DNA from: Acetobacteraceae bacterium | GTDB taxonomy: Bacteria; Pseudomonadota; Alphaproteobacteria; Acetobacterales; Acetobacteraceae | Length of the DNA stretch: 64,000 nt | Direction: 5' to 3' | NCBI GenBank assembly: GCA_044369385.1 | Contig: JBIPLY010000619.1 | Span: 18-64,017 of the forward strand | Part shown: in pieces, positions 4,747-8,663 of the stretch | Layout of the letters: each line of letters begins with the position of its first letter | How positions within the stretch are numbered: the first letter of the stretch is position 1 | Translations under genes and position numbers: made by a program | The notes under the pieces: generated by a model | The model's input: the letters and a program-made list of their open reading frames with translations, nothing else | Told to the model about the DNA's origin: nothing | The model's database searches: none

Positions 4747-5207
4747 TGCCTCAAAAACGCCCTGAGAATCCAGACCTGCAACAGGCGGCGCGTGCCTTAG
4801 CCTATGCCGAACTGTACGACGATCGCGCGGCTACGACGGCGTGCGGATGCGATCGCGCGTCGCTGACCCGGTGGCGTGCTAAGTACCAGCTTGAGCAGGC
4901 GGGCGGGTCGGAATTCTCAGAGGCGTTTTACCATTGGCAGCAGCAATTCTCATCACCGGGCGAGACGGTCAAACGAGCGACGATCGCCACCAATAAGTTA
5001 CTCGACACGATCGCCGCGTTTGCTGATCGGGTACAGGGTGACCCTGAATCAGTGCCAGCCGAGATGATGGTCGCGTGTGGTCGGACACTGGATTACGTGC
5101 GGGCAACCGAACGTCAAGCCTCGCAGACAGCGGCATTGGAGCCGCTACGACGCAAGGTGATTACGAAGCAATTAGAATTAGAGCTGACCATCAGTGGCGA
5201 TTCGTGA
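4746..5207 (+). CDS. putative small terminase / HTH DNA-binding protein
   Basis: N-terminal HTH-like CGCDRASLTRWRAKYQ. The ORF overlaps the start of the large terminase ORF, which is the expected position for TerS. Confidence 0.4.
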   Translation: MPQKRPENPDLQQAARALAYAELYDDRAATTACGCDRASLTRWRAKYQLEQAGGSEFSEAFYHWQQQFSSPGETVKRATIATNKLLDTIAAFADRVQGDPESVPAEMMVACGRTLDYVRATERQASQTAALEPLRRKVITKQLELELTISGDS

Positions 5208-6195
5208 GTATGGCGATCTCCTGAAGGATGTCCTACCCGATCGCGAGTTCCGGGAACTGGTAGACGCGATCATGGCAGAAGCCGACGCGGTTGAAGCGGA
5301 TCGATTTCAGGTTGAACCGGAACCCATTGACGTTCCCGATAACTGGGTGGACTTTGCGCGATCGTGCGTCGTGCGTTCAGGTCATGGCACGGTTGGCTTT
5401 GATCCGTTCCCGTTCCAAATTGCCTTGGTGGATACCTTTACCAAAAACCGAGGCACGGTGGTGTTGAAGACCCGACAACAGGGCATCTCCGAAACGTGCT
5501 GGATTTGGTTTCTGTGGAAGGCGTGTCGATTCCCCGGCTACACGGCGGCGCTGTTCTCGAAACGGAAGGAAGACACCAGCGACTTGGCGCGACGGGTTCG
5601 GCTTGCATTGGCGGGCTTGGGCGTGCAATTGGCGTCGGACAACCTCATGACGATCGAGTTGCCCAACCGCTCAAAGCTATTGTTTCGGACTGCCCGCAAA
5701 TCAGACGGGCGGGGTATTGCCTCGGTATGGGATCTCCTGTTTGATGAGGCGGCGTTTGTGCCGGATATCGAAGAAATTTATGGCGGTGCGGTTCCGTCGC
5801 AATCGATGCTGGGCGATCGCGCTCGTACGTTGGTTGTGTCAACTCCCGATAGCCCGTCGGGTTGGTATTACGATTTGCTCAACACCGGCAATGGCGATCG
5901 CGAAATCGAGGCGGTGTGCCAACAAATCCGCAATCAGGCAGTTGAGCCGTTCCAAGTCTGGACAGACGAGAACGGGTGGGGGAAGGCGATATTGCATTGG
6001 CGAGCGCATCCCATCTACGGAAAGCAAGACGACTACCTGGAACGTGTGGCAAGAAATATGCGCTTGCCAATGTCAACGGTGCGGCGTGAGTACGACTTGG
6101 ACTTTGGGCAGTCTGACCGATCGGTGTTTGGCGTTGACCTCGTGAAGCGGGCGCTCGTGATGGATGGCGACGCTGTTGAGTTTGATGAGTGGTAG
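5194..6195 (+). CDS. terminase large subunit, N-terminal ATPase fragment
   Basis: FPFQIALVD...VVLKTRQQGISET (Mu-type Walker A-like KxRQxGxS) and LLFDEAAFV (Walker B). The ORF ends at the inter-domain position with ..EFDEW-stop. Confidence 0.85.
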   Translation: MAIREYGDLLKDVLPDREFRELVDAIMAEADAVEADRFQVEPEPIDVPDNWVDFARSCVVRSGHGTVGFDPFPFQIALVDTFTKNRGTVVLKTRQQGISETCWIWFLWKACRFPGYTAALFSKRKEDTSDLARRVRLALAGLGVQLASDNLMTIELPNRSKLLFRTARKSDGRGIASVWDLLFDEAAFVPDIEEIYGGAVPSQSMLGDRARTLVVSTPDSPSGWYYDLLNTGNGDREIEAVCQQIRNQAVEPFQVWTDENGWGKAILHWRAHPIYGKQDDYLERVARNMRLPMSTVRREYDLDFGQSDRSVFGVDLVKRALVMDGDAVEFDEW

Positions 6196-6285
6196 AATGG
6201 GGATACTAAAAAGCCCGGTCGCATGGGGACGTTAGCGCGTCCGACCATCACCGGGGGTATCTCGCTCTACCGGGGCGAAACACAC
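6190..6285 (+). promoter_or_regulatory. extended -10 box TGGTAGAAT plus hairpin-rich 5' leader (module copy D)
   Basis: TGGTAGAAT at 6190-6198. Its TAG is the stop codon of the terminase N fragment. The leader start GGGGATACT resembles the other copies, and nested hairpins lie at about 6214-6255. Confidence 0.5.
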
Positions 6286-6990
6286 ATGAATTCTAGCAAA
6301 TCACTGTCGCACAATCTATGCGGGGTTGCTGTTTCCCAAAGCTTTGGAGATGGTTACGTCAATGTGACTCAACTCAGCAAGGCTTATTTTGAATCGACGG
6401 GCAAACGCCGTCAGCCAAATGACTGGCTGCGATTAGAGCGAACGAAAGAGACCTTGGAGCATCTTTCCTCCGTTACGGGGATTCCCGTAACGGCGCTAGT
6501 ACGGACGGTTCAGGGTGGTAACGACCTGTCTGCACAGGGAACCTACTTACACCCACGGCTATCGATCCGTTTCGGAATCTGGCTGTCGGATGAGTTCGGC
6601 TTTGCGGTTGAACAGTTTATCTCGCAATGGTCGTCAGAGTTTGGCGACTTTATCCAGACTCGTGACAAAGGCAAGCTGATCCGCCGATCAACTACCGACG
6701 CAATCCAAAACGCGGGCTTTACGGAGCATTATCATTACATCAACGCAACCCAAGTTGTTTACCGATCTCTCTTTGGAAAGACGGCGAAGGAACTGAAGAA
6801 AGACTTAGGCTTGAGCGATCGCGAAAGCTTGCGTGACTCAATGGACGCTCATGATTTACGAATGGTTGAAATGATGGAGTATCGCCTAGAGAAAGAGCTG
6901 GCAAAGGGCGTCCATAAAACGTACTCGGATTTTCATGCAGCCGCGAAACTCATTGGCGAAAATATCAAGACTGCAATGACGATTGATTAA
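6286..6990 (+). CDS. KilA-N domain DNA-binding protein
   Basis: YVNVTQLSKAY...GTYLHPRLSIRFGIWLSDEFGFAVEQFI is the KilA-N hallmark. The start is taken at the ATG at 6286 inside track ORF 6223-6990. Confidence 0.75.
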   Translation: MNSSKSLSHNLCGVAVSQSFGDGYVNVTQLSKAYFESTGKRRQPNDWLRLERTKETLEHLSSVTGIPVTALVRTVQGGNDLSAQGTYLHPRLSIRFGIWLSDEFGFAVEQFISQWSSEFGDFIQTRDKGKLIRRSTTDAIQNAGFTEHYHYINATQVVYRSLFGKTAKELKKDLGLSDRESLRDSMDAHDLRMVEMMEYRLEKELAKGVHKTYSDFHAAAKLIGENIKTAMTID

Positions 6991-7018
6991 TTAGGCGATC
7001 GCTCTGATGTAGTTTATG

Positions 7019-7040
7019 CCCCGTCATTTTGGCGGGGTTT
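7019..7040 (+). terminator. hairpin after the KilA-N gene (weak terminator candidate)
   Basis: ccccgt/ggcgggg stem followed by tttcaaaag. It overlaps the first ATG of track ORF 7016, which argues for the start at 7049. Confidence 0.3.
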
Positions 7041-7048
7041 CAAAAGAA

Positions 7049-7954
7049 ATGTCCAAACAGAAGAAAAATACCCTTCGTCTTGTGGCAAAAGAGGCTAGCG
7101 CGATTGCAAATCGCAACGAGCTTCAAGTAAAACCTTTTCACCGTAAATACGAAACGCTTCGCAAAGCCTTTGTTTCTAATCAAGGCAACATAAAAATGCA
7201 AGCTCCAAACGGGCAAGGTGTACGCATCCTCTCTCGATTCCATTTCAAAGAAACACCTTTAAATTTTGCGTCGCATTTTGAGCCTTTTTTTCTTTTACTT
7301 GCGCTTGCTTATGACATCAGAGAAAAACCTAACTGTGTTCTTGTCGGAGACGAAGCTGACTGTTACCGAGCCATAGAGGTGGTGGCTCAAGATTGCCTGG
7401 AGATAGGCATGTCTTCCCCCTCTTATGCCCGTCCATTGACAACACCAACGATAGGAATTGATCAAACTACAGCAGATCTTTTATTTCAAACAGACTTGCC
7501 ACGGGATTTTTCGAGAACAAAAATCCCGTGGGAATATGGGATTATTTTTTTTGATAAACGGTGTCATAATAGCCGATTTCAAGACTTTCCTTGCTGGATT
7601 GCGTTTTCTGCTACGGGGAAAAACCTTATTGCCTACAATGAGCTAACCTCTCAATCTGTTGTTATTGATTACCAAAAATCAGGGCGGAACCGACCTCTGA
7701 CAATACTAGCCCCTAGCCTTGATGGTGAAATACTTTTTGCTAATGCAGACATAGAAACATCAAGTCCTGATGATCTCAACTGTGGCAAAAGTAAGCCTGT
7801 CGTTACGCTTGAGGATGAATATTTCCTGTTTTGTCGTCGGCTACTAGGCAACGTTTTTGCTATGGCTAACGCATACCCTACGGATAAGTCCGCATCACCA
7901 ACCTCCTTAATATCTTTCAATCTCAGTTCCAAACAAAGTCAACTCAATGGATAA
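7049..7954 (+). CDS. hypothetical protein (AT-rich, foreign-looking)
   Basis: About 300-aa ORF (MSKQKKN...). It is visibly more A/T-rich than its neighbours. No motif recognised. Confidence 0.5.
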   Translation: MSKQKKNTLRLVAKEASAIANRNELQVKPFHRKYETLRKAFVSNQGNIKMQAPNGQGVRILSRFHFKETPLNFASHFEPFFLLLALAYDIREKPNCVLVGDEADCYRAIEVVAQDCLEIGMSSPSYARPLTTPTIGIDQTTADLLFQTDLPRDFSRTKIPWEYGIIFFDKRCHNSRFQDFPCWIAFSATGKNLIAYNELTSQSVVIDYQKSGRNRPLTILAPSLDGEILFANADIETSSPDDLNCGKSKPVVTLEDEYFLFCRRLLGNVFAMANAYPTDKSASPTSLISFNLSSKQSQLNG

Positions 7955-8063
7955 CGGACTCTTTAACCCCTACCCTCAATCACATGATGGATAGTCGCGC
8001 CCGCCTAGCGGGGTATGGCTGCTAGTTCGAGGCTGACGCAGTTTATCCCCTGTTTTTAACCCC

Positions 8064-8663
8064 ATGCCCACCGAAACGATCGCCTCACTCGACTGTGCCA
8101 CCAGCGGCGCGGACTACCTCGTGTTCCTGGTAGGCCGCGTCACCAGCGAAGGCGTCAAAGTCATCGCCAAATTCAGACGCCAAAAGGTCACGATGACCGA
8201 GGCGATCGCGACGATCGCAGCGATGACAGCCCGCTACGAAATTTCGCGCATCGTCGTCGAAACCACCGGTGGCGTAGGCGAACTCTACCGCCAACAGCTC
8301 ATCGAACGCAGCGATATTCGTGCCGGTATCATCGGCTTCAACACCACGGCACAATCCAAGCCGATCGCGATCGAGCGGCTAGCCCTCTTCCTAGAGCGCG
8401 GTTGGCTGCAAATCTCCGACCCGCAAATCGCCGATGAGCTAAAGGCATTCCAGCGAAACGGACGCAAGCTTGAGGCCGCGTCGGGTAAGCACGACGACAC
8501 GGTCATGGCGCTCGCGTTCCTCGTGTCGATTGTGGAGATCGACCGGCTTCAGTATGGCGATCGTGATCCGACGTCCCTTCGGTTTTTCGCGACCGAACCC
8601 AAGCGATACGAGTCCGTGCCCGAGGCTCGCAACGAATTTCGCAGCATGTTTGGAGGCGATTAA
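8064..8663 (+). CDS. terminase large subunit, C-terminal nuclease fragment
   Basis: SLDCATSGADYLVFLVG, VVETTGGVG and GKHDDTVMALAF match the acidic-residue pattern of the RNase H-like terminase nuclease domain. Confidence 0.8.
   Translation: MPTETIASLDCATSGADYLVFLVGRVTSEGVKVIAKFRRQKVTMTEAIATIAAMTARYEISRIVVETTGGVGELYRQQLIERSDIRAGIIGFNTTAQSKPIAIERLALFLERGWLQISDPQIADELKAFQRNGRKLEAASGKHDDTVMALAFLVSIVEIDRLQYGDRDPTSLRFFATEPKRYESVPEARNEFRSMFGGD

Follow-up and report, generated by a model that had tools for sequence, protein, structure and literature searches.

A large terminase encoded by two ORFs in an uncultivated cyanophage, with exchangeable genes at the boundary between its ATPase and nuclease halves

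Mechanistic models of the phage DNA-packaging motor rest on the single-chain large terminase subunits (TerL) of T4 (gp17), P74-26, HK97 and phi29, whose domains communicate through a linker. The present work concerns a stretch of 64,000 nucleotides (nt) in which the ATPase and the nuclease domain of a large terminase are found in separate open reading frames (ORFs), with about 1.9 kb of other DNA between them. This stretch, hereafter the window, makes up 64 kb of a contig of about 66 kb (JBIPLY010000619.1, positions 18 to 64,017, from an assembly filed under Acetobacteraceae bacterium, GCA_044369385.1) and is part of the genome of an uncultivated, myovirus-like cyanophage. That packaging ATPase and DNA cutting need not share one canonical TerL chain is suggested by phi29 and P2. 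The gp16 protein of phi29, which needs no cutting activity, has only a vestigial nuclease-like domain; in P2, gpM is the small terminase, "endonuclease subunit" being an old name, and gpP holds both domains. Herpesviruses carry the terminase ATPase/nuclease gene UL15 in two exons with two unrelated genes between them; these lie on the opposite strand, and UL15 is spliced to one mRNA giving one protein. It is an architectural analogue only, having two blocks with unrelated genes between.

Terminase genes of Twort-like and Bastille-like phages are reportedly interrupted by introns or inteins. Terminase genes with group I introns or inteins have been described in the Jug jumbo phages (PMC12880540) and in cyanophage Mic1 (PMC7156551). 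As in our case, the terminase gene of such systems is annotated as fragments with endonuclease-type genes between them. In contrast to our case, they are spliced into one chain, whereas at our locus neither a ribozyme nor an intein could be detected, and the upstream piece keeps its stop codon in genomes that lack the insert. A second precedent is given by genes that homing endonucleases have left in pieces, nrdA-a/mobE/nrdA-b of Aeromonas phage Aeh1 and gene 39/mobA/gene 60 of T4 (PMC2988022). There too, mobile or accessory genes separate the two ORFs of an essential enzyme, whose pieces are presumed to reassemble. However, close relatives of those phages have the gene unsplit and the endonuclease causes the split, whereas here relatives without the insert are split as well. 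Moreover, the Aeh1 and T4 gaps hold the endonuclease, whereas here one is found only in a relative (contig L027, an HNH enzyme), the cassette in the window being devoid of a recognisable one. Lastly, the ter genes of Streptomyces phages phiHau3 and StrepC.1 show non-coding gaps of 7-10 nt near rare UUA codons, for which recoding has been proposed (PMC10732093). These are also adjacent, out-of-frame ORFs with a very short discontinuity; our locus differs in having a stop/start overlap with no slippery site, and the kilobase inserts of its relatives rule recoding out. Apart from intron or intein cases, recoding proposals and the "ATPase/endonuclease subunit" naming in P2, the literature on split large terminases yielded nothing comparable: no description of a large terminase made as separate ATPase and nuclease genes was found in full text, a search that does not cover most subscription journals.

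The original prediction, made from the letters of the window alone, recognised a terminase broken into two pieces at the linker between ATPase and nuclease. Searches with hidden Markov models and structures agree. The upstream ORF (TerL-N) matches Pfam Terminase_6N (E 1.8e-5, above the curated cut-off) and the PHROG terminase large subunit (E 1.4e-19); the downstream one (TerL-C) matches Terminase_6C (E 2.3e-8, again above cut-off) and likewise the PHROG terminase large subunit (E 1.9e-14). When joined, the halves are colinear with single-chain TerLs of 470-505 amino acids (aa) from cyanobacterial genomes and metagenomes, with 37-42% identity over 83-90% of the query. The closest isolates are Nodularia phages, at 35% TerL identity. 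A profile of the family matches T4 gp17 in two stretches, one for each domain (E 1.6e-30), and TerL-C also has a profile match to the nuclease domain of G20c. An AlphaFold model of the two halves linked by a spacer (N+XXX+C), built with the family alignment, has a mean predicted local distance difference test score (pLDDT) of 80.7; apart from the C-terminal tail, its sole low-confidence segment is residues 324-336, that is, the final ten residues of the N-half and the spacer. Foldseek retrieved large terminases exclusively with this model, the best being T4 gp17 (E 5.6e-23), and template modelling scores were 0.71 for the ATPase domain of P74-26 and 0.72-0.73 for the G20c nuclease. The ORF at 5194-6195 is a T4-type ATPase domain, and the ORF at 8064-8663 is the matching RNase-H-like nuclease domain.

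Catalytic motifs survive in both halves. TerL-N positions K92, R94, Q95, G97, D184, E185 and S216-P218 are invariant across the family; Walker B (DE) and the STP coupling motif are invariant, and all copies have them intact. In the nuclease, the acidic triad (D10, E66 and D144/145) aligns with the catalytic residues of gp17 and is kept in seven of seven C-halves. Walker A of the whole cyanophage terminase family (alignment A1; TerL-N residues 92-100, 5467-5493) has the form K-x-R-Q-x-G-x-[ST]-E; the customary GK[ST] lysine is missing, and an invariant lysine stands two residues before RQ.

Aligned to single-chain TerLs, the break between the halves falls in the flexible inter-domain linker, nine residues before the catalytic Asp. 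This is the domain boundary that has been used experimentally in gp17, a few residues before the first nuclease strand. T4 gp17 (Terminase_6N + Terminase_6C; PDB 3cpe/3ezk), the best match by both profile and fold, has the same two domains in the same order with the same catalytic motifs. Yet gp17, all solved TerLs and the nearest homologues, about 90 of them, are single chains of roughly 470-600 aa, whereas here the domains are in separate genes: the ATPase and nuclease domains of a T4-type TerL are both present, and the single polypeptide is not. Every member of the split clade has two ORFs, which either overlap by 7 nt or lie 0.5-1.9 kb apart.

The cassette between the two halves had been held responsible for splitting the gene, an idea that the relatives of this phage do not support. 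Among 5.8 billion proteins, the closest relatives of the N-half are also N-halves alone (P0002 and P0003, ending in ...EFQEW and ...EFEEW); starting from these and from stand-alone relatives of the C-half, we reached the contigs that are designated here by L numbers. Some of them are free of any insert. In L003/L026 the ORFs occupy 904-1950 and 1944-2588, and in L022 they occupy 3-980 and 974-1573, the L022 proteins being 86% (N) and 73% (C) identical to those of the window. In each of these contigs the ATPase ORF ends in ...EW and its stop codon overlaps the nuclease start by 7 nt (gaATGGTAG). The EFxEW tail of the N-half is among the residues that only the split clade conserves. Comparison with related phages thus uncovered the empty site that had been anticipated, but no uninterrupted gene, since the relatives with the empty site still have two ORFs. 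As insert-free L022 and L003/L026 are already split, the split predates the cassette. The window itself retains a relic of the overlap, GTGGTAGAA at 6189-6197, the corresponding sequence being ATGGTAGAA in L022 and L027 and ATGGTAGAC in L003. Homology between the window and L022 ends after 6197 and resumes only near 8079 (ATCGC...), from which it follows that the insertion exchanged the first four nuclease codons for a new start. The nuclease begins with MPTET in the window and with MTTET/MTHET in its L021/L027 counterparts; in L022 it begins with MVEVIAALDC.

By neighbour joining, five split TerLs and 45 single-chain homologues (50 sequences) give a tree in which the split ones are monophyletic (100/100 bootstraps) and nest among the single-chain homologues. 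Because insert-free genomes occur in both deep sub-clades and the overlap relic has been kept, the split appears to have come first and the inserts later, several times; the simplest history would be a single ancient split, after which insertions recurred at the gene boundary. Queries with the N-half or a three-member alignment found no close relatives in viral and genome collections, and a metagenome scan for related loci returned L003 again and distant single-chain TerLs, nothing more.

The contents of the junction vary widely among insert-bearing genomes. In a more distant lineage (L001, L023 and L024), a 131-aa membrane-like ORF that starts from the same overlapped ATG is followed by an EAL-domain gene. 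L021, whose C-half is 86% identical to that of the window, has unrelated ORFs upstream of the nuclease gene. L027 has a KilA-N gene, as the window does, and an HNH gene. In L033 (C-half identity of 90% or more), an internally deleted KilA-N gene is followed by a border element (described below), a 119-aa ORF (orf119) and a 214-aa ORF (orf214); the latter has a D...EVK motif and matches PDDEXK_9 below threshold (E 0.035). The window state itself, a KilA-N gene plus an orphan ORF (ORF3), is identical in seven contigs that come from several NCBI and Logan records, and further copies exist in other records; the source samples include SRR27428177, SRR29748397 and JGI 3300007623. The ATPase/nuclease gene junction is therefore a cargo hot spot, a site at which accessory genes are swapped. 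Two side observations concern the same junction. At 1-200 of L032, window position 6832, inside the KilA-N gene, is joined to 8009, so that the 3' part of the KilA-N gene and ORF3 are gone and the nuclease gene is intact. In L023 (1553-2037) and L025 (1-301), about 480 nt of non-coding DNA with short degenerate repeats lie directly upstream of the nuclease gene; the repeats are GATCGACTCG-like, with periods of 10-12 and 24.

Could a mobile element, either a free-standing homing endonuclease or the KilA-N cassette, nevertheless have split an intact gene, the insert-free state being a later clean deletion? Such a course of events would account for the HNH gene in the L027 junction, for a possible PD-(D/E)XK protein in the L033 slot and for the T5orf172/GIY-YIG-like gene that is polymorphic elsewhere in the phage; and the insertion did give the downstream piece a new start codon, as mobile endonuclease elements do. 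We nonetheless consider it unlikely. Insert-free genomes with the same gaATGGTAG overlap are found in both deep sub-clades, insert-bearing genomes keep that overlap as a relic or reuse it as the start of a cargo ORF, and neither ORF of the window cassette has a detectable nuclease domain.

We favor the reading in which the large terminase is naturally a two-gene enzyme and the gap is a pre-existing boundary with exchangeable cargo, of which the cassette is a later tenant. Terminase genes interrupted by introns or inteins are well documented (PMC12880540, PMC7156551), and a stable hairpin stands at the left border of the insert. Even so, restoration of a single TerL by a self-splicing intron or by flanking split inteins is extremely unlikely. 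Rfam gave no match in 5000-9000 with E up to 1, nor in the whole window at gathering thresholds; a scan for tRNAs found none. A group I or group II intron was rejected on the Rfam result and because the upstream stop codon is present in insert-free genomes: the ATPase ORF stops at the same codon without any insert, so removal of the insert would not join the frames. Split inteins, known from "fractured genes" (PMC2677866), were rejected as well, as were ordinary inteins. No Pfam intein domain was found, and the alignment to single-chain TerLs has no residues added at the break, which leaves no space for intein halves. The inserts of the relatives, moreover, are unrelated in sequence.

Recoding was also considered, in the form of a programmed -1 frameshift or short bypass that would fuse TerL at the 7-nt overlap in insert-free genomes. 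The nuclease frame is indeed -1 relative to the ATPase frame at the overlap, and a published proposal of recoding exists for other interrupted terminase genes (PMC10732093). However, in L003 and L022 the nuclease frame extends just one open codon ahead of its ATG, being closed by a TGA two codons upstream, and no slippery heptamer of the form X XXY YYZ is present at their overlap (GAA/GAG GAA TGG TAG). Where 0.5-1.9 kb of other genes separate the halves (window, L027, L033, L021, L001/L023), fusion by recoding would be impossible, yet both halves are under strong purifying selection by the estimates below. The -1 frameshift was rejected for these sequences, and recoding as a whole is distinctly improbable.

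Selection was gauged from the ratio of non-synonymous to synonymous substitution rates (dN/dS). Synonymous sites are saturated across the split clade (dS 1-3), where dN/dS lies between 0.07 and 0.30 in the N-half and between 0.07 and 0.41 in the C-half; all pairs but one are at or below 0.3, the exception being the C-half of L022 versus L003 (0.41). A closer pair, the window and L027, both insert-bearing and 95-97% identical in DNA, differs in TerL-N by 32 synonymous and 3 non-synonymous changes (dN/dS 0.026) and in TerL-C by 26 and 5 (0.054). The corresponding figures are 14 and 2 (0.041) for the KilA-N gene and 9 and 1 (0.034) for the candidate small terminase gene. These values point to strong purifying selection on both halves, in insert-bearing genomes as elsewhere. 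They also bear on a choice that the original prediction had left between a two-piece terminase and a defective element. In favor of a defective phage or decaying prophage, its terminase inactivated by the insertion, one may cite that an essential gene is interrupted and that the data are all metagenomic. But dN/dS is 0.03-0.05 between insert-bearing genomes, catalytic residues are intact in all copies, the same sequence comes from many independent samples, and a full set of structural and replication genes is present. Purifying selection, the intact catalytic residues and the full gene set together make a defective element very unlikely indeed, and of the two options it is the two-piece enzyme that the data support. 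A separate intact terminase elsewhere would have argued otherwise; tblastn with 91 single-chain TerLs found no second one in the 64-kb window (best stray match, E 0.018).

All this makes a naturally two-gene terminase, with the cassette as a later tenant of its boundary, the most probable explanation by far. Two polypeptides would presumably be made and form an active terminase. In the ancestral layout, the ATPase and nuclease ORFs with their 7-nt stop/start overlap would have been suited to coupled translation. TerL-N and TerL-C might then associate non-covalently and, together with the putative small subunit encoded at 4746-5207, yield a packaging motor capable of cutting concatemers. In the sub-lineage of the window, an insertion displaced the nuclease start and supplied a new one (M-P/T-T/H-E-T), and the nuclease gene would have to be translated independently from a long late transcript. 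The insertion now comprises a gene for a KilA-N DNA-binding protein and an exchangeable slot, which a conserved hairpin element delimits to its left and the start of TerL-C to its right. Accessory DNA presumably accumulates at the junction because a two-gene boundary tolerates insertions, and it would be exchanged by recombination between co-infecting relatives, probably with the help of free-standing endonucleases like the HNH enzyme of L027. We infer that recombination of the homing-endonuclease type drives the turnover of cargo.

Several considerations weigh against this scheme. What suggests that two products assemble and package DNA is their conservation. When expressed separately, the domains of T4 gp17 retain ATPase or nuclease activity. 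To our knowledge, such separately expressed domains have not been reported to reconstitute packaging or a working motor, and a non-covalent motor is therefore not a trivial expectation. Translational coupling has been lost by the nuclease gene of the window, and no promoter or Shine-Dalgarno sequence is recognisable upstream of it. All split-clade genomes are metagenomic contigs, with no isolate above 35% TerL identity. The deletion in L032 could be a natural variant or an assembly artefact or chimera. Finally, a terminase of an unrelated family might conceivably be present elsewhere in the complete genome.

The features of the locus are listed in Table 1. Among the predictions for the intervening DNA, a two-gene insert of about 1.9 kb with a KilA-N gene and an AT-rich second ORF was correct, except that this ORF, put at 300 aa, has 312. 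Measured along the window, GC drops to 0.40-0.46 in the insert from 0.56-0.60 in the flanks; at third codon positions it is 0.56 in the KilA-N gene and 0.35 in ORF3, compared with 0.65 and 0.73 in the terminase halves.

Table 1. Positions of the terminase locus features and of the repeated intergenic module in the window
Feature	Position	Strand	Product or sequence	Basis or remark
Five closely packed ORFs	4746-8663	+	153, 333, 255, 312 and 199 aa	
Candidate small terminase subunit (TerS)	4746-5207	+	153 aa	Assigned from position
TerL-N, stand-alone terminase ATPase subunit	5194-6195	+	333 aa, ending ...VEFDEW and stop	Pfam, PHROG, profile, Foldseek
Walker-A-like motif of TerL-N	5467-5493	+	KTRQQGISE	
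Walker B of TerL-N	5734-5757	+	LLFDEAAF	
Relic of the ancestral overlapped nuclease-gene start	6189-6197	+		Junction sequences of window, L003, L001, L022, L027
Long imperfect hairpin, left insert border	6190-6272	+		RNA fold
DNA absent from insert-free L022	6198-8078	+	about 1.88 kb	Junction comparison, GC profile
KilA-N domain gene	6223-6990	+	255 aa from ATG 6223	Pfam KilA-N, E 2.2e-19
Conserved hairpin element, left border of exchangeable slot	7004-7040	+	TGATGTAGTTTATGCCCCGTCATTTTGGCGGGGTTT	Common to L021, L027, L033
Exchangeable slot, here with orphan ORF3	7038-8056	+	ORF3: 7016-7954, 312 aa	Different content in L027, L033
Degenerate repeat of the hairpin element's 5' portion	8033-8053	+		Direct repeat and alignment
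TerL-C, stand-alone terminase nuclease subunit	8064-8663	+	199 aa	Pfam, PHROG, profile, Foldseek
Catalytic motifs of TerL-C		+	D10 (SLDCATSG), E66 (VVETTGG), D144/D145 (GKHDDTVMA)	
Copies of the ~100-nt module	11659-11759, 13501-13601, 23099-23199, 39014-39049, 62713-62813	+		
Copies of the ~100-nt module	3287-3391, 46887-46946, 58484-58588, 59395-59499	-		

The insert had been taken for a single cassette. Comparison of the window with L027 shows otherwise, as the KilA-N module and the slot exchange separately: the two sequences are colinear over 5194-7037 (96.8% identity) and again from 8057 onward (94.9%), and the stretch between 7037 and 8057 is 1,019 nt long and carries ORF3 in the window, its counterpart in L027 being 529 nt with the HNH gene. 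By this comparison, the insert is a composite of a KilA-N module and a separately exchangeable slot. The point at which identity ends, 7037, lies inside the hairpin element at 7004-7040 (TGAYGTAGTTTATGCCCCGTCA..TTGGCGGGG), which L021, L027 and L033 share immediately ahead of their differing slot genes and which has a 9-bp stem (centroid fold, -15 kcal/mol). The half-copy at the right is 17/21 identical to 7004-7024. At the left border, the hairpin at 6190-6272 has a predicted stability of -40.6 kcal/mol (z -3.4; 0 of 200 shuffles as stable) and a sequence that occurs once in the window; its inner part is kept in L027, and its outer arm (GGGGATAC) is missing there. As this hairpin covers the first ATG of the KilA-N gene (6223), the true start of that gene may be ATG 6286.

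Short inverted ends, GGGGATA and TATCCCC, had been thought to flank the insert. Both sequences exist, the former at 6199-6205 as described and the latter at 8044-8050, one base off the position given, but their pairing is best regarded as a chance match: of random window pairs, 3-5% contain a 7-nt match. L027 lacks the left arm despite having the same KilA-N gene, and the right arm lies within the ORF3-specific segment, in the half-copy of the hairpin element; the arms thus belong to different modules and are not the ends of one element. A transposon or IS-like element was rejected, as no transposase was found in Pfam or PHROGs and the inverted repeat is at chance level. Nor does the cassette seem to bear a promoter, as had been proposed. 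No sigma-70-like site was found either at 6196-6290 or ahead of 8064, and the count for the whole 4.8-kb region was 3, with 3.3 expected. Scans for promoters and terminators detected sites no more often than in shuffled sequence, with not one at the borders of the insert, and the promoter-like module that is repeated in this phage does not align to 6170-6300.

That module, of about 100 nt, is intergenic and occurs in at least nine copies, with palindromic arms (GCCACGTGCACCATGTAAT ... CATCACGTGGCAC) around TTTTATATAGGGGTAA. The module probably represents a promoter/operator set of the phage itself; the terminase junction lacks it.

The KilA-N protein matches PHROG 129 and 2657, annotated "transcriptional regulator". 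Its C-terminal half matches the candidate defence systems PDC-S13 (1.4e-10) and PDC-S22 of PADLOC. BstA-like abortive-infection proteins combine an N-terminal KilA-N domain with a C-terminal domain of BstA type; here a weak match to the BstA PHROG (E 0.0066) covers the KilA-N part. The gene is partly deleted in L033 and L032. A search of Pfam, PHROGs and PADLOC revealed no nuclease domain in the KilA-N ORF or in ORF3. Nodularia phage 2AV2 also has a KilA-N gene, 2.3 kb from TerL, but TerL is a single 592-aa gene; given the single gene and the distance, 2AV2 was rejected as an instance of the same arrangement. In L027 the slot gene encodes a 145-aa HNH endonuclease (E 4.7e-7).

ORF3 is an orphan gene. 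It has no family match in Pfam, PHROGs or PADLOC and none in a phage collection, and a word-indexed search returned only itself. An exhaustive HMMER search of 1.8 billion representatives found three remote homologues alone, without a Pfam domain. The single-sequence AlphaFold2 model was unusable (pLDDT 33). As 7016-7037 is part of the conserved hairpin element, ORF3 more likely starts at ATG 7049 or later; alternatives to the first start are this ATG and the GTG used by the JGI gene call for a 290-aa product. The homologues (P0118-P0120) have a C-terminal extension with a conserved HASPxTHWRRGHWR...W(I/V)RP motif. ORF3 lacks this extension and may therefore be a truncated member of an uncharacterised family. 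It is also without a HIP1 site; the window has 77 of them, which points to a cyanobacterial host.

Upstream of TerL-N, the ORF in the position of a small subunit overlaps the ATPase gene start by 14 nt. Family evidence for it is confined to weak helix-turn-helix matches (HTH_23, E 0.03; HTH_Tnp_1, E 0.038). L001, L003 and L026 have a 136-aa ORF at the equivalent position.

In its other gene content, the window resembles the complete genome of a tailed phage. Among its products are baseplate J and P2-I-like proteins, a tape measure, DnaN, helicases, the small subunit of ribonucleotide reductase, a C5 methylase and a GGDEF-EAL protein, in addition to a gp5-like spike and a portal-like protein (46994-48208) whose matches are below Pfam cut-offs. 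The GGDEF-EAL protein is encoded at 638-2320. The EAL-only gene in the terminase junction of L023 (653-1552) is 39% identical to it over the EAL domain, so that both lineages carry genes for cyclic-di-GMP turnover. Relatives that are 97-99% identical have a T5orf172/MUG113 (GIY-YIG-like) gene between the GGDEF-EAL gene and a 227-aa gene (L027, 6677-7330; L028, 4580-5233), which is absent from the window (gap 2321-2567). It adds a second insertion of endonuclease type that is polymorphic in this phage.

The wider suggestion that these comparisons permit is that the whole cyanophage clade packages its DNA with ATPase and nuclease as separate, non-covalent subunits, and that the boundary between their genes serves as a protected landing pad whose cargo is exchanged between co-infecting phages. 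We think this likely. If it is true, the covalent inter-domain linker of large terminases would be dispensable, and the split lineage would be a natural test of which contacts between the domains are really required, of what determines their stoichiometry and of which of the two pieces docks on the portal. The separation of the domains has been maintained across saturating synonymous divergence, even with kilobases of foreign DNA between the two genes. Such phages would be overlooked or wrongly scored in annotation pipelines and in phylogenies built on TerL. The same junction would also constitute a landing pad, inside an essential late operon, for homing endonucleases and accessory genes, possibly with functions in defence or counter-defence; as a hot spot for cargo and homing endonucleases in a core operon, it should be useful for finding accessory or defence-related genes.

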